Positions 453 to 53,992 of a DNA stretch of 58,586 bases are shown piece after piece (the first letter of the stretch is position 1; the number at the start of each line of letters is the position of its first letter). Below the pieces are notes generated by a model, which had not been told where the DNA came from, did no database searches, and worked only from the letters and a program-made list of their open reading frames with translations. The position numbers were made by a program, and so were the translations under genes. Source of the stretch: an uncultured Candidatus Saccharibacteria bacterium (GTDB lineage Bacteria > Patescibacteriota > Minisyncoccia > Minisyncoccales > JAGGXC01); assembly GCA_964445905.1 (NCBI GenBank), contig CAYUNN010000010.1:1-58586 (forward strand), in the 5' to 3' direction.

Positions 453-1151
453 TTACATTTTTTCATTTTCTAACATTAATTTAAGCAAAAATACCGTATC
501 TTGCTTAAGATCAGACTTAACCCAAGCCTTTTGTTTTTCATCTTTTATCTCGCCCAAACCAGATAGAATACCACGATTAGGCATATTTTCCATAAATTCA
601 ATGCATTTTTCAAGATAATCGGAGAATTTCATCTCCGTTCTCTTCTCCACAATTTCCCTGTTTATCTCCCAGTTGTTTTTTAAGAAAAAATGAATATCAA
701 AAATATCGCGATTAGCAGTTTTACCACGCTCGGTCATAGCCACCAATTTATGAGCAAACATATCTTTGCGCTTCATAACAAGCATTGAGATGCCAAGATA
801 ATTTTTAACCTCGTATTGTGAACCAAAAATCCTCTTGCTAATTTCAACTTTTATATTTTGATCTTCTTCTCTGTAAGAAAGATGAATAAACAAAGTGTGC
901 ATTTTATCTCTTTTATCTTTTATTGTTCCGTATTTATCAACAATATTTTTTACCTTATCAAAAACTTCCTGTTCTTTATTCTCGTCAAGCAAATCAAAAT
1001 CAAGATCAACGGAAAAGCGATCTAAATTATAAAAAAGATATGCGGCTGTGCCACCCTTAAAACCCAAAAGGGGCCCAAGCGAATTATCAGTATAAATATC
1101 TTTTAAAATTCTAATTAAAATATTTTTATGGGCAGCTATATTTAATGTCAT
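453..1151 (-). CDS. AbiEii/AbiGii-family nucleotidyltransferase toxin (type IV TA)
   Basis: Motifs GFKGGTA, RFSVDLDF, HKLVA and RDIFD; ATGA overlap with the upstream antitoxin gene. Confidence 0.9.
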   Translation of the reverse strand: MTLNIAAHKNILIRILKDIYTDNSLGPLLGFKGGTAAYLFYNLDRFSVDLDFDLLDENKEQEVFDKVKNIVDKYGTIKDKRDKMHTLFIHLSYREEDQNIKVEISKRIFGSQYEVKNYLGISMLVMKRKDMFAHKLVAMTERGKTANRDIFDIHFFLKNNWEINREIVEKRTEMKFSDYLEKCIEFMENMPNRGILSGLGEIKDEKQKAWVKSDLKQDTVFLLKLMLENEKM

Positions 1152-3839: not shown

Positions 3840-5831
3840 TTAAAATAAGATTTCTAAACTATTAATTTCTTCCCAATTATATTCATCGAGAACAATGATC
3901 TTATCGGTCCCTATCACGTAAAGATAATCATTTATATAGATGGCTCTCGTTGCCATAATATCACTTACTGCTCTCTCCAGTCTAAGGAAGCCTTTATCAT
4001 AAGAAAAGATATATCCCCCTTTATTCCCGGGCAAGAAGAAAACTTCATGCTCTCTGTCTAATAAAAACGCATGATGATTATTCAACACATCAGACCAATA
4101 TTCATTCAAAAAATACTTGTCAATTTCTCTTGGATCTTTAGGCGAACTCACATCAAATAGAGATAATTTAACTTGTCCTCCTTCTTTCCCTATTCCCAAA
4201 ATCTTATCTTTTGTTATCGGATGAAGATAAGAAGAATAACCGGGAATTTTCAGCTCTCCCTCCATTTTAGGATTTCTAGGATTAGATAAGTCTAAAACAT
4301 AAAACGGATCAATCTCCCTAAACGTAACCACATATCCCTTGTCCTGAACAAATCTAACAGAATATATTCTTTCTGTTAAGCCAAGATCTTTTACCGAACC
4401 AGTAATATTCAAACTTTTATCAAGAATATAAACATCATTAGCAGAATCGCCCAGCCTGCCAATCATTGACCAGCCATCACCCACAGTAACAGCTACTCTC
4501 AGACTGTTTTCATATTCATCCAGAGAAAATTGATTAAGAAGCTTGCCCGGTACATTACCTGCAGCCACCAAGTCAAAACTATCCAAGTCTATTTTAACTA
4601 TTCCTGTTTTTTCCAGCTCTCTCTTGTTCTCTTTATGATAGTCAACCATCCGATTGTTAATTTCATTCTCAACCCTTAATTTTTTGTCTCCATCTAAAGA
4701 ATTCAAATAATTATTAAAAATAATTCCAAATTCCGTCATTTTCGCTGCGCTGCTAATATCATATTCGCTTAATTTATCTATTCTTTCAATTATCCTGCTT
4801 GGAATTATATCTTGGCATTCTTCCTTGAAAAAACGGGACATAAAACTAATAAAATCTCCGTAGTAGTAATAAGTCAAGTAAATACCTTCGTTTGACATGT
4901 AGACCAATGATTTATCAGAAGAACCAACAAAAGAAAGGTTTTTTTCAATTTCTCCCGTAGCTGGATCAAGAATAAAAGCATTATATGTTACATCAACCGG
5001 AAATGGGTTAACTGGATAATAAACGTCACTACATTTGACTTCAAACGAAACGCCCTCCATTATTAATGGTCTGATCGGACAAGGCTGATAAATATCAATA
5101 TTTGTTTGAGTAATTAAATAAATCTTACCCTTATAAAGCCTTGCTCCCGTTAAAGATGTTCTTGGCTCTAATCCTACTTCCCATTCTTTCTTGGGGGATT
5201 CAGGGTCAGAGACATCATAACCAAAAACATTTTTACCTGAAAAAATCACCAGGCTTTTGTCAGCTAAGAGAAGTTCTCCTCTTTCATTGATTTCAGAATC
5301 AAGATTTAAATCTTCGGGAGGAAAAGCCTTAACAAGATTAATCTTCCCTAGTGAAGGGACAGGTATTCTTTCTAAAATGGGGTAATAATTTCTTGCCGAA
5401 GAAAAATAAATTTCCTTTCCATCTGTTTTAACTATATCTGGTTCGTCTATTCCCTCAACTTGAACATTGGTTTCAGAAACTCTAGTTATCCCAGATTCTT
5501 CCGATGACTTAACAGAACCCGGTAAGGCCAAAGGCATCTCCCCTACGCTCTCGTCTAAAACATCCATTCTAGCTGGAAATCCAGCGCTGTAAGCAAGGTT
5601 TTCGTTTAGATTAGCTTCTTGGAGCCAAGCCTTAAAATCATCCTGAGAAGAAAATTTATTAATTCCCTCTACTTTTTCAGTAACAGAAGAACGTCCGGTT
5701 GTTCTTCTTATTGTTTCAGTAAAAGTTTGAAAATTTAACTTTTCAAATTCAATAAAAATGGAAACGATGATAGCTAGTGATAAAAAAATTAAAATCACTA
5801 TTGCTATTACACTGTCTATATTTCTTTTCAT
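3840..5831 (-). CDS. Membrane-anchored beta-propeller domain protein (Beta_propel-type)
   Basis: N-terminal TM helix; SETNVQVEGIDEPDIVKTDG, LLNQFSLDEY, ERIYSVRF and GELKIPGYSSYLHP signatures. Confidence 0.88.
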   Translation of the reverse strand: MKRNIDSVIAIVILIFLSLAIIVSIFIEFEKLNFQTFTETIRRTTGRSSVTEKVEGINKFSSQDDFKAWLQEANLNENLAYSAGFPARMDVLDESVGEMPLALPGSVKSSEESGITRVSETNVQVEGIDEPDIVKTDGKEIYFSSARNYYPILERIPVPSLGKINLVKAFPPEDLNLDSEINERGELLLADKSLVIFSGKNVFGYDVSDPESPKKEWEVGLEPRTSLTGARLYKGKIYLITQTNIDIYQPCPIRPLIMEGVSFEVKCSDVYYPVNPFPVDVTYNAFILDPATGEIEKNLSFVGSSDKSLVYMSNEGIYLTYYYYGDFISFMSRFFKEECQDIIPSRIIERIDKLSEYDISSAAKMTEFGIIFNNYLNSLDGDKKLRVENEINNRMVDYHKENKRELEKTGIVKIDLDSFDLVAAGNVPGKLLNQFSLDEYENSLRVAVTVGDGWSMIGRLGDSANDVYILDKSLNITGSVKDLGLTERIYSVRFVQDKGYVVTFREIDPFYVLDLSNPRNPKMEGELKIPGYSSYLHPITKDKILGIGKEGGQVKLSLFDVSSPKDPREIDKYFLNEYWSDVLNNHHAFLLDREHEVFFLPGNKGGYIFSYDKGFLRLERAVSDIMATRAIYINDYLYVIGTDKIIVLDEYNWEEINSLEILF

Positions 5832-6122: not shown

Positions 6123-6150
6123 TTGACAGAGTTTTTAAGAAAAATATAAT
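6123..6150 (+). promoter_or_regulatory. Consensus sigma70 promoter TTGACA-16-TATAAT
   Basis: TTGACA at 6123..6128 and TATAAT at 6145..6150. Confidence 0.85.
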
Positions 6151-6203: not shown

Positions 6204-6356
6204 ATGGAAAGAGAATTATATAATTTCTTTTCTTTTGACGAGGAAGATATGGAAGAAGATTTTGACGAAGACACGGAAGAAGATTTCAGTTGTGAAGATG
6301 AAGATGAAGACGAAGACGAAGAAGAAGATGACGATGATTTTGACGAAGAAGAATAA
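6204..6356 (+). CDS. 50-aa extremely acidic microprotein (not in the ORF track)
   Basis: MERELYNFFSFDEEDMEEDFDEDTEEDFSCEDEDEDEDEEEDDDDFDEEE*; lies between a consensus promoter and a terminator. Confidence 0.75.
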   Translation: MERELYNFFSFDEEDMEEDFDEDTEEDFSCEDEDEDEDEEEDDDDFDEEE

Positions 6357-6393: not shown

Positions 6394-6421
6394 AAAAACC
6401 CTGTTATGAGCAGGGTTTTTT
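6394..6421. terminator. Bidirectional intrinsic terminator
   Basis: AAAAACCCTG-TTATGAG-CAGGGTTTTTT between convergent genes. Confidence 0.85.
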
Positions 6422-6454
6422 ATAATGAATTTCGCTATTATTATTGCTTCATCT

Positions 6455-26496: not shown

Positions 26497-26703
26497 CTAC
26501 ATCTTTGAATCAGAGTAAATTCCCGCTATTACAAGAATTAAGCCAGAAATAACAAAAGCGACACTAAGAAGAATAAGATACATTCGATCAAACGTCCCAA
26601 ATTTAGCAAAGAGAAGAGCTCCCGAAACAACGAGAATTATGCCGAAATATATCATCGTAATCAACCTTCTGTTATACTTATTCCCTGTTTTCAATACAAT
26701 CAC
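26497..26703 (-). CDS. Small two-TM membrane protein
   Basis: Two hydrophobic helices; strong SD AGGAGGTG, so the real start is probably TTG at 26694. Confidence 0.65.
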   Translation of the reverse strand: MIVLKTGNKYNRRLITMIYFGIILVVSGALLFAKFGTFDRMYLILLSVAFVISGLILVIAGIYSDSKM

Positions 26704-26778
26704 CTCCTTTTTTAAAAGCTTACTAATTAAGCATAATAGAATTTAAAAAAAAGTAAAGAAAAAAAATAGGGAATTTCC

Positions 26779-27435
26779 CTATATATTTTTTAATTTTTTT
26801 TGCGTGTCAAAGAATCTTTTTATAGCAGTATAATATCCTCCTGCTGCAAATAGGATCGTCATCCAACCTAGCAGGGTAAATTTTATTGAACTAATGCCTA
26901 TTTCACTCCACCAAACGGAACTGAGAATGAGTACGATTATCATGATGAATAATCGCCAGACTCTACCAAAACCCCCGTAATTCCGCGACAAGCCCACTGT
27001 TTTTGACAAAGCGCCAAAATTTGAAGTTAAGGACACTCCCCCAACAGCAAGAGCGACTATAGGCCAGTTAATAAACCCCCCAAACCCAACTGCTAAAATT
27101 AAAACCAGGTCAGCAACACGATCCAGGCTATGGTCAAGATAGTCTCCCGACTTACTCTGAACATTTCTTATTCTTGCTAAATTACCATCTAGAGCATCAA
27201 GCAAAGAACTTAGCGCTAGAAATATACCGGCAATAAAGATTATGATTCTAGACTGGTAAAAGCCAGCTAAAAAAATAAAAGCGGCGGTAATAAAAGCAAG
27301 AAGAAGAGAAATTATTGTCAGACCATCAGGAGTAATAAAAGAAGGAATTTTTCTACTAATCTTTTCTAAAATTCTATCACTTTTTTCTCTTGACGACGCA
27401 ATGCTTTCTTTCTTAATTTCTTTCTTTCCAAACAT
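26779..27435 (-). CDS. CDP-alcohol phosphatidyltransferase, archaeal (archaetidyl-phosphate synthase)-like
   Basis: TPDGLT; DALDGNLAR...GDYLDHSLDRVAD (DxxDGxxAR...GxxxDxxxD); RNYGG.GR; C-terminal TAIKRF. Confidence 0.88.
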   Translation of the reverse strand: MFGKKEIKKESIASSREKSDRILEKISRKIPSFITPDGLTIISLLLAFITAAFIFLAGFYQSRIIIFIAGIFLALSSLLDALDGNLARIRNVQSKSGDYLDHSLDRVADLVLILAVGFGGFINWPIVALAVGGVSLTSNFGALSKTVGLSRNYGGFGRVWRLFIMIIVLILSSVWWSEIGISSIKFTLLGWMTILFAAGGYYTAIKRFFDTQKKLKNI

Positions 27436-27467
27436 TTACTTCTCTCCTATCTTTATTTTAAAATAAC

Positions 27468-27608
27468 TTTTTTATTCTTAAAGCTACCTGCGAGCGATTA
27501 GAGCCCTTGAACATAAGTTCAAAAACTCTAAATCTTCTAGCTACTTATTAAGTTAAGGAGGGATTACTTAATTTTTGCTACTCTCAGATAGCTTTAAAAA
27601 CAAAAAAA
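27468..27608 (-). ncRNA. Putative structured cis-regulatory RNA (three-way junction with a C-rich anti-SD loop)
   Basis: Long closing stem plus two hairpins. About 7 G-U pairs exist only on the minus-strand transcript. It lies between a consensus promoter and the SD of the CDP-alcohol transferase gene. Confidence 0.6.
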
Positions 27609-27629
27609 CTTTACTTCAAGCTATTATAT

Positions 27630-27657
27630 ATTATAATTAATTAAATATTTTTGTCAA
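27630..27657 (-). promoter_or_regulatory. Consensus sigma70 promoter TTGACA-16-TATAAT
   Basis: TTGACA at 27657..27652 and TATAAT at 27635..27630. Confidence 0.8.
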
Positions 27658-27739
27658 GGTAAAATATTTTTCTCCACTATTTTGTTTTTGCAAAAATTGC
27701 AATAATCAGTTAAAAAGAAAAAATTAACTTTTTAAAAAA

Positions 27740-29773
27740 ATGGAATTAGTTATAGTCGAATCTCCCATAAAAGCAAAAACGATCCAGAAATTCCTGGGCT
27801 CCAGCTTTAAAGTTCTTTCTTCTTATGGACACGTAAGAGATTTGCCGAAGAATAGATTCGGAGTAGATTTAGAAAGAAACTTTCAGCCTAAATATGTTGT
27901 TCCCCAAAAAGCTAAAAAAGTTGTTAAAGAAATCAAAACAGAATTAAAAAAAAGTGAAAACATAATTCTAGCTACCGATGAAGACCGAGAAGGAGAAGCG
28001 ATAGCATGGCATCTTTATCAAGCCCTAAATTTGAAAGAAGATAATTGTAAAAGAATTGTCTTCCACGAAATTACTGAAAAAGCAATTAAAAGAGCACTAG
28101 AATCTCCGAGAAAAATTAACATTAATTTAGTTGACGCTCAACAAGCGAGAAGAATACTTGATAGAATCGTAGGATATAAATTATCTCCTTTCCTTTGGAA
28201 AAAAATAGTAAAAGGATTATCTGCAGGAAGAGTTCAATCGGTAGCAGTGAGAATAATAGTTGACAGAGAAGAAGAAATTAAAAAATTTGAACCTCAGGAA
28301 TATTGGCAGATTAAAGCTATTCTTAACAAAGAGGAAAAGGATTTTGAATCTCTGCTTTCAAGGAAGAAAAACGAAGAGATACCAAAGCTTGGTATAAAAA
28401 TAAAAGAAGAAGCTGAAAAAATAATAGAAAATTTAGAAGGAGCAGAATATAAAGTAGAAGAAATAAAAAAGAAAGAAATAAAAAGAAATCCTCTTCCTCC
28501 TTTTACTACTAGCACTCTCCAGCAAGAAGGCTGGAAAAGGTTCCGAATGCCAGCAAAATTTACCATGAGACTGGCTCAAAATTTATACGAGAAAGGACTT
28601 ATTACTTATCACCGAACCGACTCTTTGAATCTGTCAGAATCATCTCTTTCTGACGCTAAAAAAATTATTATTAAAAATTATGGGAAAGATTACTGGCCTG
28701 GATTTAAAAGAAAATATAAGGCGAAAGGAAGAGCCCAAGAAGCTCATGAAGCTATTAGACCAACAAATTCCAGTAAAGAACCAGGGAGAATAAAACTAGA
28801 CAGTAATCAATTTAAGATATACAAGCTTATTTGGGAAAGATTTATTGCCTGTCAAATGAGCCAAGCGGAATTTGATGCCACTCAAGTTAAAATTAAGGCA
28901 AAAGAGTATATTTTTAAAACTTCTGGTCAGATTTTAAAATTTGACGGATTCCTTAGGGTCTATTCCCAAAAATTTAAAGAAAGCGAACTGCCAGACTTGA
29001 AAAAAGATGATGTCCTTAAATTGATCAAGTTAGAAAAATCTCAACATTTCACCAAGCCCCCGGCAAGATTTACTGAAGGCTCTTTGATTAAAGAATTAGA
29101 AAAAAACGGGATTGGAAGACCCTCCACTTATGCTCCAGTTATTGCTACTATAAAAGAAAGGAATTATGTAAATAACGACGAGCAAAGAAGATTTTGCCCA
29201 ACTGAAATAGGAATAATGGTTAATGATCTTTTAGTAAAACATTTTCCGCAAATAGTAGATATTAAATTTACAGCAAAAATGGAAAAAGATTTAGACAAAA
29301 TAGCTCAAGGAGAAAAAGAATGGACAAAAATTATAAAGGATTTTTACAATCCATTTGAAAAGAACTTAATTAAAAAACAAAAAGAAGTAGCCAAAAAGGA
29401 AACAGACAAAAAAACAGAACAAAAATGTCCAAAGTGTGGCTCTCCTTTATTAATAAAATTGGGCAGGTTTGGAAAATTTTTTGCTTGTTCTAATTTCCCC
29501 GAATGTAAATTTAGCAAGCCCTTGCCTCCCCCAAAAATAGGAGTGAAGTGTCCTGAATGCAAAGAAGGAGAAATGGTTGAAAGAAAAACTAGAAAGGGAA
29601 AAATATTTTTCGGATGCAATAAATTCCCTGAATGTAAGTTTGCTACTTGGGACAAACCTATTAATAGACTATGTCCCAAATGTAAAAAATTATTAGTAGA
29701 AACAAAAAGCGGGCAGATAAAATGCTCAAGCAAAGAGTGCAATTTTAAAGAAGAAAAAATTGACAAAAGCTAG
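27740..29773 (+). CDS. topA: DNA topoisomerase I
   Basis: IVESP, ATDEDREGE, SAGRVQS, catalytic ITYHRTDS and GIGRPSTY; C-terminal Zn ribbons. Confidence 0.97.
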   Translation: MELVIVESPIKAKTIQKFLGSSFKVLSSYGHVRDLPKNRFGVDLERNFQPKYVVPQKAKKVVKEIKTELKKSENIILATDEDREGEAIAWHLYQALNLKEDNCKRIVFHEITEKAIKRALESPRKININLVDAQQARRILDRIVGYKLSPFLWKKIVKGLSAGRVQSVAVRIIVDREEEIKKFEPQEYWQIKAILNKEEKDFESLLSRKKNEEIPKLGIKIKEEAEKIIENLEGAEYKVEEIKKKEIKRNPLPPFTTSTLQQEGWKRFRMPAKFTMRLAQNLYEKGLITYHRTDSLNLSESSLSDAKKIIIKNYGKDYWPGFKRKYKAKGRAQEAHEAIRPTNSSKEPGRIKLDSNQFKIYKLIWERFIACQMSQAEFDATQVKIKAKEYIFKTSGQILKFDGFLRVYSQKFKESELPDLKKDDVLKLIKLEKSQHFTKPPARFTEGSLIKELEKNGIGRPSTYAPVIATIKERNYVNNDEQRRFCPTEIGIMVNDLLVKHFPQIVDIKFTAKMEKDLDKIAQGEKEWTKIIKDFYNPFEKNLIKKQKEVAKKETDKKTEQKCPKCGSPLLIKLGRFGKFFACSNFPECKFSKPLPPPKIGVKCPECKEGEMVERKTRKGKIFFGCNKFPECKFATWDKPINRLCPKCKKLLVETKSGQIKCSSKECNFKEEKIDKS

Positions 29774-29927: not shown

Positions 29928-30437
29928 TTATTTTTTAGAAAACTTATTAAAAATAATAATTACAATAAAAGCAGATAATAAGCCAACCAAGATTCCACCT
30001 AAAATATCGGAAGGCCAATGAACGCCAGAATATATTCTGCTCACAGCCATAGCAAAAGAGAGACAAAAGAATAATAATCCTATTTTTTTATTATAATAAA
30101 AAACAACCGCTGAAATAGCAAAGAAAAAAGAAGTATGAGCGGAAGGAAAAGAACTAGTGTTAAGACGATCTATCAAGACATTAACATTATTTTCGACAAA
30201 AGGACGCGGTCTTTCCCAAATAATTCTGAATAATTCTGTAATTAATCTAGATAAAAAAGCAGCCGTGAATGCCATTAAAGTCAATCTCCCATATTTTTTA
30301 AAGTTAAAAAATAGAAATAAAAATAACGAAGCAACTAAAATAAAAGGAAGATATTGAGCTAAAAAAATCCCTGCGCCGTCAAAAGACAAGGTTTCTGAAG
30401 TAAAATTATTAATCTTTTCGAATAAAAAAGCATCCAT
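29928..30437 (-). CDS. PAP2-family lipid phosphatase (BcrC-like undecaprenyl-diphosphatase)
   Basis: RPRP, SFPSAH and SRIYSGVHWPSD motifs. Confidence 0.9.
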   Translation of the reverse strand: MDAFLFEKINNFTSETLSFDGAGIFLAQYLPFILVASLFLFLFFNFKKYGRLTLMAFTAAFLSRLITELFRIIWERPRPFVENNVNVLIDRLNTSSFPSAHTSFFFAISAVVFYYNKKIGLLFFCLSFAMAVSRIYSGVHWPSDILGGILVGLLSAFIVIIIFNKFSKK

Positions 30438-32112: not shown

Positions 32113-32865
32113 TTAATATTCTTTTACCGCTCTAATTATTTTTTCTAGTTGATTGTTTTCCCTTCTTTCAACCACGTTTCCGGTTACAATAATATCTGCT
32201 CCTGCTTTTAATTTCTCTCTGACCATTTCAGGATTTTTTATTCCTCCTCCTACAACTAAGGGAATATCTACATTCGTTTTTATTGTCTTTATCATCTCGT
32301 TAGATATCGGTTTCGGTGCACCAGAGCCCGCTTCAAGATAAAGTAGCTTAGCTCCAAAATATTTTGTATAAAGAGCGTATTGAAGAGCTTTTCGATAATC
32401 ATCTCTTTGTAATAATTCAGCTTTACCTACCTGCCCCGCTTTCATTCCCGGACTTATTATAAGATAACCTGTAGAAATTGGCTCTAATCCCATGGTTTTT
32501 ATGTGCAACGTTCCTTCTACTGCCTCTCTGATTACATATTGAAGATCTTTTGAATTAAGCAGGCTCATAAAAAGAACCCCGTCTGCCAAAACATTTAAAG
32601 CGCTTGCCTCAGAAGGAAACAGAATAATAGGTATCTGTCTTTCTTGAGATTTCCTGACTCTCTTCTTTATTTCCACAATGGTTTCTCCAATTATAGATTT
32701 TTCAATTGGAGACGACCCGCCAATTAAAATAGCATCTGTTCCGGCAGAAAAAGACTCAAAGGCAATCTCGCCTGCAATTTGCGGGAGCTGTTTGTCTGGA
32801 TCAATTAGAGTAAAATGCAGCTTCTCTTCTTTTATTTTCTCTGACAAAAATTTCCAAATTTTCAT
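32113..32865 (-). CDS. Geranylgeranylglyceryl phosphate synthase (GGGPS/PcrB family, group II, archaeal-like)
   Basis: HFTLIDPDKQ, ILIGGS, ILFPS, FMSLLNS, YLEAGSGA, VVGGGIK and AGADIIVTG motifs; SD AGGAGG. Confidence 0.92.
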   Translation of the reverse strand: MKIWKFLSEKIKEEKLHFTLIDPDKQLPQIAGEIAFESFSAGTDAILIGGSSPIEKSIIGETIVEIKKRVRKSQERQIPIILFPSEASALNVLADGVLFMSLLNSKDLQYVIREAVEGTLHIKTMGLEPISTGYLIISPGMKAGQVGKAELLQRDDYRKALQYALYTKYFGAKLLYLEAGSGAPKPISNEMIKTIKTNVDIPLVVGGGIKNPEMVREKLKAGADIIVTGNVVERRENNQLEKIIRAVKEY

Positions 32866-50548: not shown

Positions 50549-53500
50549 CTATATTTTTTTAATCGCCAACCACAAATCTTTCTGATCAAATTTTATTTCT
50601 CTTTCGGCAGCAAATGTTAATTTAGACTTTTTGCCAAACTCAAATTTTTCTGCTTCAACTTCCTTTAAAATAAAATCTTTATTCCTTGTTAAAATTTCAT
50701 TTAATTCCTTGTCTCCCGAATAACAAATCAAAATTTTGTGCCTCGGCTTGTAACCTGCTTTTTTTCTCATTGATTTAATATGGCGAAGCACTTCTCTTAT
50801 TATCCCCTCTTCTCTCAATTTTGGAGTAATATTAAGATCTAATTTCATTTCTTCTTTTAAATCATCAAAAATTATTTCTTTAACATTGACCTCTTCTTTA
50901 ATCAGATCAATTAATTCTTTTTGATCCAACTTAAAAGATTTTTTCCTGATAGCCAAAGAAGGAAGAGGTTGTCTCACCTTAATCCCTGATTCAGCTCTTT
51001 TGTTTAGAGCTAATCCAATAATTTTTCTAACATCTTTCATTCTCTTCTCAAGCTCGATATCTATTAAGCCTTCATTAGCTTCAGGATAATCACACAAATG
51101 AACCGATTCTTCTTTTCCTTTATAAGAAGGTAATTCTTGATAAATATATTCGGAGAAGAAAGGAACAAAGGGCGCTAACAATTTAACTAATTCTATTAAG
51201 ACATAATTTAAAATTATCACAGCTTCTTCTTTCTCTTTTTCATTTTTCGGCTTCTGAAATCTTCCTCTGGATCTTCTTATGTACCAATTAGATAAATCGT
51301 CAACGAATTCTTCAAAAAGTCTAGCCGCGCTAACTATTTCATACAACTTCAAATTTTCGTCTATTTTAATTTTTAAACCTTCCAATCTTGAAACTATCCA
51401 TTTATCTAGTAATTTCTCCGGATGAATATCTAGACTAACATCTTTTTTCTCAGAATAAATGGACAGAAATCTAAGACTATTCCAAAAAGTGCCAAAAAAC
51501 TTCCTTGAAAGATCTCCGAGCTCTTTGAAGTCGAATCTTTTAGGCTCCCCAACAGAGTTAATGGTATAGAAATAAAATCTTGCGCAATCCACTCCGAATT
51601 CATCTGCTACCTTTTGGGGATCAACAATAATGCCTTTTGATTTAGACATTTTACGTCCCTTTGCATCTAAAACAATGCCATGAGAAATAACATTCTTATA
51701 AGAGATACCCAAACCAAGTAGAGTTGAAATAGCCAGCAGCGTATAAAACCAGCCCCGGGTTTGATCTACTCCTTCACAAATAAAGTCAGCTGGGAAAAAC
51801 TCATTGTTATTAATTTTTTCTTTATTTTCAAAAGGATAATGGAGCTGAGCATAAGGGACAGAACCAGAGTCGAACCAACAATCAATCACTTCAGGGACTC
51901 TTTCCATTAAAGAATTGCATTCGGAACAAGCAAATTTAATTTCGTCAACATAAGGTCTGTGAAAATTAAGATTTCCTTTTTTATCATAAGGAAACTTCTT
52001 AAATTCAATTTCTCTTATTTCGTCGTTTCTAGGGATAAGGTCCGAATACAAATCAACAATTTCCTTATTGGTTAATCCTTTAACTGCTGATTGCAAAAAC
52101 CAAAGAGGCCCTCCGTGACTTACTATTAAAATATTCTTTCCTTTATATTTGCTTTCTAAATTTTCTATGAAATTAATCACTCTTAATTTTACTTCATTAT
52201 ATGTTTCCCCTTTTTCAGGAGGATTAGTAAACCTATCTTCATTAACAGAATAATTCCTGAGATAATCATTCTTAGATTTTCCATTACATTCTCCAAAATC
52301 AATTTCTCTTAATCTTTTATCGTATTTAACTTTAACTCCAATTTCCTTAGAAACAATTTCTGCTGTTTGCTTTGTTCTCTTAAGATTAGAAGCAAAAACT
52401 AAATCTATTTTCTTATCTTTAAGAAATTTAGCTGAGTTTTCTACCTGCTTTATTCCTTCTAAATCTAATGGACAATTAATGATCTCCGGCCAAGAGCTCA
52501 TTGAATCTTCTTGGCAAACAGAATGACCATGACGCATTAAAAAGTAATGATTTGTGCTAAATTTTTTTGAAATTAGATCTTCTCTAGAACCGACTAATTC
52601 AACTTTATTACAATTAGAACATTTCCAGGCGGGCAAAGGAGTCCCCCAATATCTTTCTCTGGTTAAATTCCAATCCTTAATTTCTTTTAACCATTCCCCA
52701 AACCTTCCTTCTTTTAAATGAGGCGGTATCCAGTTAATCTTTTTATTATTAGCTAATAAATCACTCTTAACTTTCTGCATATTTATAAACCAGCTTTTCT
52801 TGGCATAGTAAATAAGGGGAGAATCACACCTCCAACAAAAAGGATAGTCGTGAATATAATCTTCTTCTTTAAAAATTATGTTCTTCTTTTTTAATTCTTC
52901 AATAATTAAAGGGTCAGCACTTTTTACAAATTTTCCTGCCCATTGCTTTATTTCCTTTTCAAACTTTCCTTCTTCGTTAACTGTTACCAATACGGGCAAT
53001 TCTTCCTGTTTTCCAAGATTCATATCGTCTTCTCCAAAAGCAGGAGCTATATGAACTAATCCTGTTCCCTCTTCCAAGGAAACAAAGTCTGCCCCAACGA
53101 TCTTATAAATATTCTTCTTTCCCTTCGCTAGCTTAATATCAAATAATGGTTTGTATTTTAATCCAATCAGATTTTCTCCTTTAAATCTCTCTACTATCTC
53201 TCCTTCGATCCCCGAGTTTTCTAGTCTTCCTTTGGCTACAATTAAATATTCTTTATTAATTTTTACTTTGTAATAAGTAAAACTAGGATTTATAGCAATA
53301 GCCACATTGGCAGGAAGAGTCCAGGGAGTAGTAGTCCAAACAAGCAGATAAGAATCTTTGAATTTAGCATCTTTTGCTTTTAATTTAAATTTAACATAGA
53401 TGGCCGGCTCTTTGGTTTTTTTATACCCCTGAGCCACTTCATGCGATGAGAGAGAGGTTCCACACCGAGGACAGTAAGGAATAACTTTATAGTCTTCATA

Positions 53501-53992
53501 TAAAAATCCTTTTCCCCAAATTTGCTTAAGAATCCACCAAACAGATTCCATATATTCGGGACTACAAGTAATGTATGGATTATCTAAGTCCAGCCAAAAA
53601 CCTATTCTTTTAGTAAACTCCTCCCATTCACTCTTATAGCTAAAAATATTTTTCTCACATTCTTGGGCAAATCTTTCAATGCCGATTTCTTCAATTTCTT
53701 TTTTACTCTTAACGTTTAATTGCTTTTCTGTTTCCATCTCAGTGGGGAGACCATGCGTATCCCAACCTGCTTTTCTTTCAACATAAAAACCTTTCATTGT
53801 CTTATAACGTAAAATAGCATCTTTAAAAGAACGAGCTAAAAGATGATGTATTCCTGGCTTTCCATTGGCAAAGGGAGGACCTTCGTAAAAAACAAAGCGA
53901 GGCTTTCCTTTTGTCTTCACTAGTGTTTTCTGAAAAATATTATTATCCTTCCAAAACCTTAAAATTTCTTTTTCTTTTTTAGGCAAGTCCAT
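50549..53992 (-). CDS. ileS: Isoleucine--tRNA ligase (type 2) with an inserted histidine-phosphatase domain
   Basis: EGPPFANG, GWDTHGLP, WTTTPWTLP, DQTRGWF and KMSKS; internal RHG...HGG domain. Confidence 0.95.
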   Translation of the reverse strand: MDLPKKEKEILRFWKDNNIFQKTLVKTKGKPRFVFYEGPPFANGKPGIHHLLARSFKDAILRYKTMKGFYVERKAGWDTHGLPTEMETEKQLNVKSKKEIEEIGIERFAQECEKNIFSYKSEWEEFTKRIGFWLDLDNPYITCSPEYMESVWWILKQIWGKGFLYEDYKVIPYCPRCGTSLSSHEVAQGYKKTKEPAIYVKFKLKAKDAKFKDSYLLVWTTTPWTLPANVAIAINPSFTYYKVKINKEYLIVAKGRLENSGIEGEIVERFKGENLIGLKYKPLFDIKLAKGKKNIYKIVGADFVSLEEGTGLVHIAPAFGEDDMNLGKQEELPVLVTVNEEGKFEKEIKQWAGKFVKSADPLIIEELKKKNIIFKEEDYIHDYPFCWRCDSPLIYYAKKSWFINMQKVKSDLLANNKKINWIPPHLKEGRFGEWLKEIKDWNLTRERYWGTPLPAWKCSNCNKVELVGSREDLISKKFSTNHYFLMRHGHSVCQEDSMSSWPEIINCPLDLEGIKQVENSAKFLKDKKIDLVFASNLKRTKQTAEIVSKEIGVKVKYDKRLREIDFGECNGKSKNDYLRNYSVNEDRFTNPPEKGETYNEVKLRVINFIENLESKYKGKNILIVSHGGPLWFLQSAVKGLTNKEIVDLYSDLIPRNDEIREIEFKKFPYDKKGNLNFHRPYVDEIKFACSECNSLMERVPEVIDCWFDSGSVPYAQLHYPFENKEKINNNEFFPADFICEGVDQTRGWFYTLLAISTLLGLGISYKNVISHGIVLDAKGRKMSKSKGIIVDPQKVADEFGVDCARFYFYTINSVGEPKRFDFKELGDLSRKFFGTFWNSLRFLSIYSEKKDVSLDIHPEKLLDKWIVSRLEGLKIKIDENLKLYEIVSAARLFEEFVDDLSNWYIRRSRGRFQKPKNEKEKEEAVIILNYVLIELVKLLAPFVPFFSEYIYQELPSYKGKEESVHLCDYPEANEGLIDIELEKRMKDVRKIIGLALNKRAESGIKVRQPLPSLAIRKKSFKLDQKELIDLIKEEVNVKEIIFDDLKEEMKLDLNITPKLREEGIIREVLRHIKSMRKKAGYKPRHKILICYSGDKELNEILTRNKDFILKEVEAEKFEFGKKSKLTFAAEREIKFDQKDLWLAIKKI

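Follow-up and report, generated by a model that had tools for sequence, protein, structure and literature searches.

By computed folding, a structured RNA encoded on the minus strand between topA and a gene for a CDP-alcohol phosphatidyltransferase is real, strand-specific and exceptionally stable, and it can credibly be put forward as a candidate structured leader RNA outside the catalogued families. The two genes are divergent (topA at 27740-29773 on the plus strand, the phosphatidyltransferase gene on the minus strand) and are separated by a 304-bp gap within a 58.6-kb stretch of DNA, hereafter the window. One of the three arms of the RNA ends in a loop that, on comparison of the sequences, is a near-copy of the 3' tail of E. 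coli 16S rRNA. We prefer a function in which this loop would occlude Shine-Dalgarno (SD) sequences of its own locus, a reading to which we assign a probability of roughly one in three.

To our knowledge, the regulatory RNAs of small, uncultured, AT-rich bacteria, such as the one from which the window appears to come, seem little catalogued. Literature searches on noncoding RNAs of candidate-phyla-radiation bacteria and on SD usage in Patescibacteria found nothing relevant, from which we do not claim that such work is absent.

Fold, strand specificity and locus

An initial annotation of the window had drawn a three-way junction of helices P1, P2 and P3 on the minus-strand transcript, and the computed fold places all three where they had been drawn (Table 1). 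P1 comprises an inner helix of 28 bp with a single A-G mismatch and an outer extension of 9 bp, for a total of 37 bp. The arms meet almost without linkers (J1/2 and J3/1 have 0 nt and J2/3 has 4 nt). The 64 pairs consist of 40 A-U, 14 G-C and 10 G-U pairs with no A-C oppositions, one A-G mismatch and two small bulges, and the GC content of the element is 29%. In the predicted ensemble, pair probabilities are close to 1 in P1, P2 and P3, and the P2 loop is unpaired with a probability of about 0.8-0.99. Modeled as helices, P1 would be about 105 Angstrom long and P2 about 42 Angstrom.

Table 1. Coordinates of the leader element and of neighboring features in the window
Feature	Position	Strand	Description
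Whole three-way-junction RNA	27458-27619	-	162 nt, 64 base pairs; computed fold
P1 5' strand, U-rich	27580-27619	-	Outer 9 bp 27619-27611, 2-nt AG bulge, inner 28 bp 27608-27580
P1 3' strand, A-rich	27458-27495	-	Partner of 27619-27580; inner helix 27608-27580 / 27495-27467, outer extension 27619-27611 / 27466-27458
P2 arm	27539-27579	-	3-bp base, 4x5 internal loop, 7-bp stem, 12-nt loop (10 bp total); 27579-27577 / 27541-27539 and 27572-27566 / 27553-27547
P2 apical loop AAUCCCUCCUUA	27554-27565	-	CCUCC at 27561-27557; anti-SD-like
P3 arm	27496-27534	-	17 bp, one bulged U, tetraloop UUAU (27516-27513); strands 27534-27517 / 27512-27496
Perfect sigma-70-type promoter	27630-27657	-	-35 TTGACA 27657-27652, 16-nt spacer, -10 TATAAT 27635-27630; 12/12 matches
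SD AGGAG of the 218-aa gene	27444-27448	-	8 nt ahead of ATG 27435; 10-14 nt past the end of P1
218-aa CDP-alcohol phosphatidyltransferase	26779-27435	-	PF01066, 55.6 bits
Terminator-like hairpin and T-run	26766-26782	-	End of the 218-aa gene
Small ORF	26497-26709	-	68 aa from GTG; 65 aa from TTG at 26694

We used ViennaRNA to compare the folding energy of the region 27441-27623 with that of 200 dinucleotide shuffles. The minus strand has a minimum free energy of -59.5 kcal/mol, whereas its shuffles average -35.0 with an sd of 3.4 (z = -7.28) and not one of the 200 was as stable. The plus strand of the same region reaches -35.8 kcal/mol (z = -2.95). Among sliding 170-nt windows on both strands of the 58.6-kb sequence, the element ranks first of 3896 both by raw energy (-59.5, with the runner-up at -51.9) and by z after composition was regressed out (-6.6, with the runner-up at -4.2), and it outranks the tmRNA and tRNA regions of the window. 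Once composition is adjusted for, second place goes to the 170-nt window at 5071-5240 on the plus strand (-48.3 kcal/mol, z = -4.2), which lies antisense to a beta-propeller gene at 3840-5831.

The bias among the non-Watson-Crick positions, nearly all of which the initial annotation had already described as G-U on this strand and A-C on the other, proved complete among the pairs. All 10 of these pairs are G-U on the minus strand and correspond to A-C or C-A on the plus strand, the only mismatch being one A-G. The probability of a 10:0 asymmetry is about 0.001 (one-sided binomial). Because a decaying DNA palindrome should yield G-U and A-C oppositions equally, this asymmetry points to selection acting on the minus-strand RNA.

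Read along the minus strand, the gap consists of the promoter (27657-27630), the 162-nt self-complementary block (27619-27458) and an A-rich, unstructured segment of 22 nt that contains AGGAG (27448-27444) and ends at the ATG at 27435. The promoter that had been called consensus matches TTGACA-16-TATAAT at all 12 positions. Perfect matches of this kind occur twice in the window against 0.06 expected, and no set of two or more was seen in any of 100 shuffles. Judged from promoter spacing, transcription would be expected to start near 27622, 2-3 nt ahead of the first P1 pair, and we infer from the sequence that the element itself is transcribed. No terminator-like site was found between 27623 and the ATG at 27435. 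Without a terminator between the fold and the ORF, the element, if transcribed, is the 5' leader of an mRNA.

The minus-strand -10 box (27635-27630) overlaps the -10 box of a promoter-like site on the plus strand (TTTACT-16-TATAAT, 27610-27637, 10/12 matches), which could serve topA. Given the overlapping boxes and this possible role of the plus-strand site, a single polymerase-binding site may be contested between the leader RNA and topA. The other perfect promoter of the window (6123-6150 on the plus strand, TTGACA-N16-TATAAT) precedes a 50-aa ORF that is extremely acidic (D/E-rich; ATG at 6204, stop at 6354-6356, plus strand) and is followed by a GC-rich terminator hairpin at about 6395-6422 (plus strand).

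A coding role for the element was considered and rejected. Its stop-to-stop frames reach at most 35 aa, and the sole AUG frame read has 18 codons and starts inside P3. The N-termini of orthologues of the 218-aa protein show no extension into the leader.

Searches for related RNAs and comparison with known systems

No family in Rfam 15 matched the element at its gathering threshold, as had been expected in the initial annotation, and the only hits were tmRNA and tRNA elsewhere in the window. A permissive scan of 27300-27800 (E up to 10) gave six weak alignments, all far below gathering scores. The best of them was to the archaeal sRNA41 (RF02905; 23.9 bits against a threshold of 45, E = 0.11) and ran through the CCUCCU loop of P2; the others included a miRNA model, likewise among the best, and FourU (14.5 bits against 60, E = 4.4). 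No riboswitch family matched the element up to E = 10, in agreement with the earlier remark that it did not resemble any recognized riboswitch.

Nor did the element appear in sequence searches. Within the window, blastn with 27401-27680 detected no second copy and no match longer than 19 nt, and a distant blastn search against 50,697 phage and 72,556 plasmid records gave no match. The multi-copy MITE that the initial annotation had held out as a contrary outcome was thus not seen in the space searched: one copy is present in the 58.6-kb window, and those phage and plasmid collections gave none further. A protein database search identified five close orthologues of the 218-aa protein at 53-75% identity, three of them at 71-75% and two at 53%. 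A scan of a genome collection with the orthologue alignment gave 80 loci, mostly archaeal and with protein identities of at most 42%, the nearest relatives there being from Methanosarcinales and Thermoplasmata. The element was absent from these 80 loci (862,359 bases; blastn and nhmmer), in which the best match was 19 nt long (E = 0.11).

Since the nearest relatives of the downstream gene in the genome collection belong to Methanosarcinales, we also searched for sRNA41 in 10 loci that carry relatives of this gene (nine from Methanosarcinales and one from Falkowbacteria). None contained it, and Rfam returned only nine tRNAs. The sub-threshold score and the absence of sRNA41 from these 10 loci indicate a shared CCUCCU loop motif only rather than homology. 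The element can also not be read as an archaeal intergenic sRNA, as the window is bacterial (tmRNA/SmpB, topA, signal peptidase I). The sRNA41 of Methanosarcina mazei is described as masking ribosome-binding sites in polycistronic mRNAs (PMC5867862), and the element resembles it, as far as that description goes, in having a hairpin loop with CCUCCU that could act in this way. In contrast to the element, sRNA41 is an independent intergenic gene of an archaeon and has neither the 37-bp closing stem nor the position in a leader.

Among bacterial sRNAs, the RsaE/RoxS type of Firmicutes, to which the initial annotation had likened the element, is described as pairing with G-rich SD regions through unpaired motifs rich in C. 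These sRNAs are about 100 nt long and have their own terminators and several CCCC motifs, whereas the element has one CCCUCC loop, no terminator and a position in a 5' UTR. Membership in this group is not borne out, given the lack of an Rfam hit at E up to 10, the single C-rich loop and the missing terminator before the ORF.

The element is similar to 6S RNA in length (about 165 nt), in its long closing stem and strong promoter and in its presumed co-transcription with a downstream gene, which in E. coli takes the form of ssrS-ygfA. However, it lacks a two-sided central bubble, as 0 nt are unpaired on the 3' side of its junction and hairpin P2 occupies the other side, and for this reason, together with the absence of an Rfam 6S hit at E up to 10, we rejected this identity. 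5S rRNA, SRP RNA and RNase P were likewise rejected (no Rfam hit; GC content of 29%; topology considered), as were retron and Y RNAs (no Rfam hit; no reverse transcriptase or Ro-type gene among the scanned ORFs of the window).

The P2 loop, SD usage and possible targets

The 12-nt loop of P2 is more than the CUCCU that had been pointed out before. Compared with the annotated rrsA gene of E. coli (NC_000913; the organism's own 16S gene lies outside the window), AAUCCCUCCUUA equals the 16S rRNA 3' end GAUCACCUCCUUA minus one A and with the first base also differing, and eight consecutive loop bases, CCUCCUUA, together with the preceding AUC match the rrsA terminus. This likeness, newly noticed here, makes the loop, at the level of sequence, a near-copy of the E. 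coli 16S tail. In 16S rRNA this sequence is a free tail, whereas in the element it sits in the closed hairpin loop of a leader RNA. CCUCC occurs 19 times on the minus strand of the 58.6-kb window, from which the chance of finding it in a given 12-nt loop is about 0.3% by a post hoc estimate. Hairpins with CCUCC or CUCCU in the loop number 29 in the window and are mostly intragenic, where chance commonly produces them, which counts against an anti-SD role of the loop; none except 27547-27572 was noticed in a 5' leader, and these 29 provide no evidence for a repeated class of such hairpins.

SD sequences are uncommon in the window. Of 53 ORFs, 4 have GGAG or GAGG at -17 to -5 relative to their first start codon, and plain A/T-rich sequence lies ahead of most ORF starts. 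When any in-frame start within the first 40 codons is counted, the number rises to 11 of 53, whereas control tetramers give 2-4 of 53; the starts are mechanical longest-ORF calls, a few of which may be wrong. The phosphatidyltransferase gene belongs to the four SD-led ORFs. Its protein is most similar among NCBIfam models to archaetidylinositol phosphate synthase (NF040950; 115.6 bits against a cut-off of 180).

The next gene downstream, the small ORF of 68 codons, carries an ideal SD of 11 nt, AAGGAGGUGAU (26709-26699), located 8 nt before a TTG that is its fourth codon, and this TTG (26694) is a more probable start for the ORF than the GTG that falls within the SD. We read its product as two membrane helices, and it has no match among protein family profiles. 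It ends in a strong terminator of its own (26488-26467). Because a terminator-like hairpin separates it from the 218-aa gene, the second SD may not share a transcript with the leader.

Another SD-led lipid gene of the window, that of GGGP synthase (32113-32865, minus strand; TIGR01769, 227.7 bits against a cut-off of 161.55), has no structured leader (z = +0.27), a result that weighs against the anti-SD reading of the loop. With a PAP2 phosphatase gene (29928-30437, minus strand) and the archaetidylinositol-phosphate-synthase-like gene, it makes up a set of lipid genes of archaeal type in surroundings that are bacterial (tmRNA/SmpB, topA, signal peptidase I). Elsewhere in the window, an isoleucyl-tRNA-synthetase-like protein of 1147 aa (50549-53992, minus strand) has a His_Phos_1 domain at residues 484-646, inside the class I synthetase core, and a gene at 453-1151 (minus strand) encodes an AbiEii-type nucleotidyltransferase, the toxin component of a type IV toxin-antitoxin system. 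A 189-aa ORF without a family match (1148-1717) lies upstream of the latter with a 4-nt overlap and could be its cognate partner.

We examined how strongly the loop could pair with start regions across the window. Its CUCCU is indeed complementary to the AGGAG of the gene it precedes, forming 5 contiguous bp (-8.2 kcal/mol) that rank sixth among the 53 start regions, and the best partner among them is the neighboring 68-aa ORF (-14.6 kcal/mol). Across both strands of the whole window, five non-self sites give more favorable pairing with the loop than -14.6. The best sites in five shuffled windows were at -14.2 to -17.8, and these windows contained 4-12 sites at or below -14. As shuffled sequence reaches similar energies, the complementarity of the loop alone is not significant, and we retain the SD of the neighboring ORF as no more than a weak lead. 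A second match pointed out in the initial annotation, AAGGAGGG at 57913-57906 on the minus strand, is present in the sequence but does not look like a functional SD, as it lies 22 nt upstream of the nearest ATG, and shuffled sequence produces matches just as strong.

The SD at 27448-27444 is unpaired with a probability of 0.4-0.9, and its partial pairing is with the early coding sequence rather than with the leader. The predicted ensemble contains no alternative fold, no sequestration of the SD and no terminator or anti-terminator, which leaves the translational switch that had been proposed unsupported. An intramolecular pseudoknot between loop and SD would also be geometrically strained by the 37-bp rod of P1, from whose base the SD is about 12 nt away. 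For the two to meet, the model would need P2 to fold back along P1, the weak outer helix of 9 A-U and G-U pairs to open, or both.

Candidate functions of the leader

In our preferred reading, the element would be transcribed as the 5' leader of a message that encodes an archaetidylinositol-phosphate-synthase-like lipid enzyme. Transcription would begin at a very strong promoter about 3 nt upstream of the 162-nt, 64-bp junction. The long P1 stem would close both ends, the closed 5' end would protect the leader RNA, and the P2 arm would present a single-stranded copy of the ribosomal anti-SD tail. The loop would then compete with 16S rRNA for the few true SDs at the locus, namely the AGGAG located 10-14 nt past P1 and perhaps also the ideal SD that precedes the neighboring small ORF, and the outcome would be damped translation of a strongly transcribed membrane-protein message. 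Both the pairing of loop and SD and any regulatory effect of it are predictions of this model.

A doubtful but still tenable alternative is that the element is a structural stabilizer of the 5' end, an RNase III site or both. P1 would then shield the mRNA from decay that depends on its 5' end, or be cut by an RNase specific for double strands, thereby setting the half-life of the message, and the loop would be incidental. Leaders of E. coli ompA and B. subtilis aprE are known 5' stabilizers, and the leaders of rnc, pnp and S. aureus cspA are cut by RNase III. Like the element, such leaders have a long, near-perfect duplex at the 5' end of the mRNA ahead of an accessible SD. RNase III needs roughly two helical turns, and P1, with its 28 bp interrupted by one mismatch and its 9-bp extension, is well beyond this. 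That the stem begins 2-3 nt after the presumed start, that the SD is largely accessible (unpaired probability of 0.4-0.9) and that the pairing of the loop with its targets is no better than chance are all consistent with this alternative. Nevertheless, the known leaders of this kind are single hairpins, in contrast to the three-way junction and anti-SD loop of the element, and a simple hairpin would be enough for either task, yet 64 bp in three arms have been kept with 10 G-U pairs and no A-C opposition. An exact 8-nt copy of the terminal CCUCCUUA of 16S rRNA in a 12-nt loop is also hard to call incidental, its pentamer core being rare on the minus strand, and no RNase III gene was found in the window.

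It is rather unlikely that the element is released as a stable sRNA that acts in trans, as RsaE/RoxS or sRNA41 do, on the handful of SD-led mRNAs, or that it serves as a 16S-tail decoy for a binding protein. In its favor, the consensus promoter points to abundant transcription, a long helix encloses the two ends of the RNA, the loop matches the E. coli 16S 3' tail but for one missing base, and the best sub-threshold Rfam alignment is to sRNA41 through the CCUCCU loop. A gene for YbeY, of a family of nucleases acting at the 16S 3' end, lies 6 kb away. However, the stretch from the fold to the ORF contains neither a terminator nor an obvious 3' end, candidate targets show no enrichment relative to shuffled sequence, and the likeness to sRNA41, which is absent from the 10 scanned loci, is one of loop motif and not of homology. 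The protein-decoy version draws only on the binding of Era and other factors to the 3' tail of 16S rRNA.

A riboswitch that senses a ligand, or an RNA thermometer, controlling the lipid enzyme is very unlikely. Three-way junctions are a common aptamer architecture, and the placement in the 5' UTR, the richness of P1 in A-U and G-U pairs and the weak FourU alignment (14.5 bits, E = 4.4) would fit such a sensor. The junction is almost fully paired, however, which leaves little room for a binding pocket, and there is neither an expression platform (no terminator, and no sequestration of the SD by the leader) nor a match to a riboswitch family at E up to 10. Thermometers of the FourU or ROSE type were rejected because the SD is not base-paired into the leader and the FourU score is far from its threshold of 60, and a fold of -59.5 kcal/mol would not melt at physiological temperatures.

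Least probable is a DNA-level inverted repeat that has no role as RNA (a MITE, a palindrome arisen by chance, or a cruciform within the promoter region of the divergent topA), for although the long terminal inverted repeats and the location beside topA in a 304-bp divergent intergenic region with overlapping -10 boxes would suit it, the 10 G-U against no A-C and the strand difference in z (-7.3 against -2.95) are unexpected for a palindrome, the element is single-copy in the window with no match in phages, plasmids or the 80 loci, and a structured 90-nt spacer is unfavorable for a cruciform.

Occlusion of SDs by the P2 loop would be a mechanism of a familiar kind in an unusual setting, and the same would hold for a processed leader. 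A broader proposal builds on such occlusion: a scaffold RNA with a near-copy of the 16S tail might serve as a surrogate or competing anti-SD that gates the few strong-SD genes of a bacterium largely past SD initiation, genes that include archaeal-type membrane-lipid genes possibly acquired horizontally. An RNA of this sort, embedded in a leader, would be of an uncatalogued kind, and we consider the proposal quite improbable as it stands.

One locus thus joins the strongest fold of 58.6 kb, one of two perfect promoters, a loop resembling the ribosomal tail and two of the rare SD-led genes, one of them for a lipid head-group enzyme of archaeal type. Without conservation, the element would be a well-documented structured leader specific to one lineage. 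With it, the element would represent a new RNA family and would open a direct way to study how bacteria with few SDs handle the SD-dependent genes left to them and how a bacterial host controls lipid genes of archaeal type.
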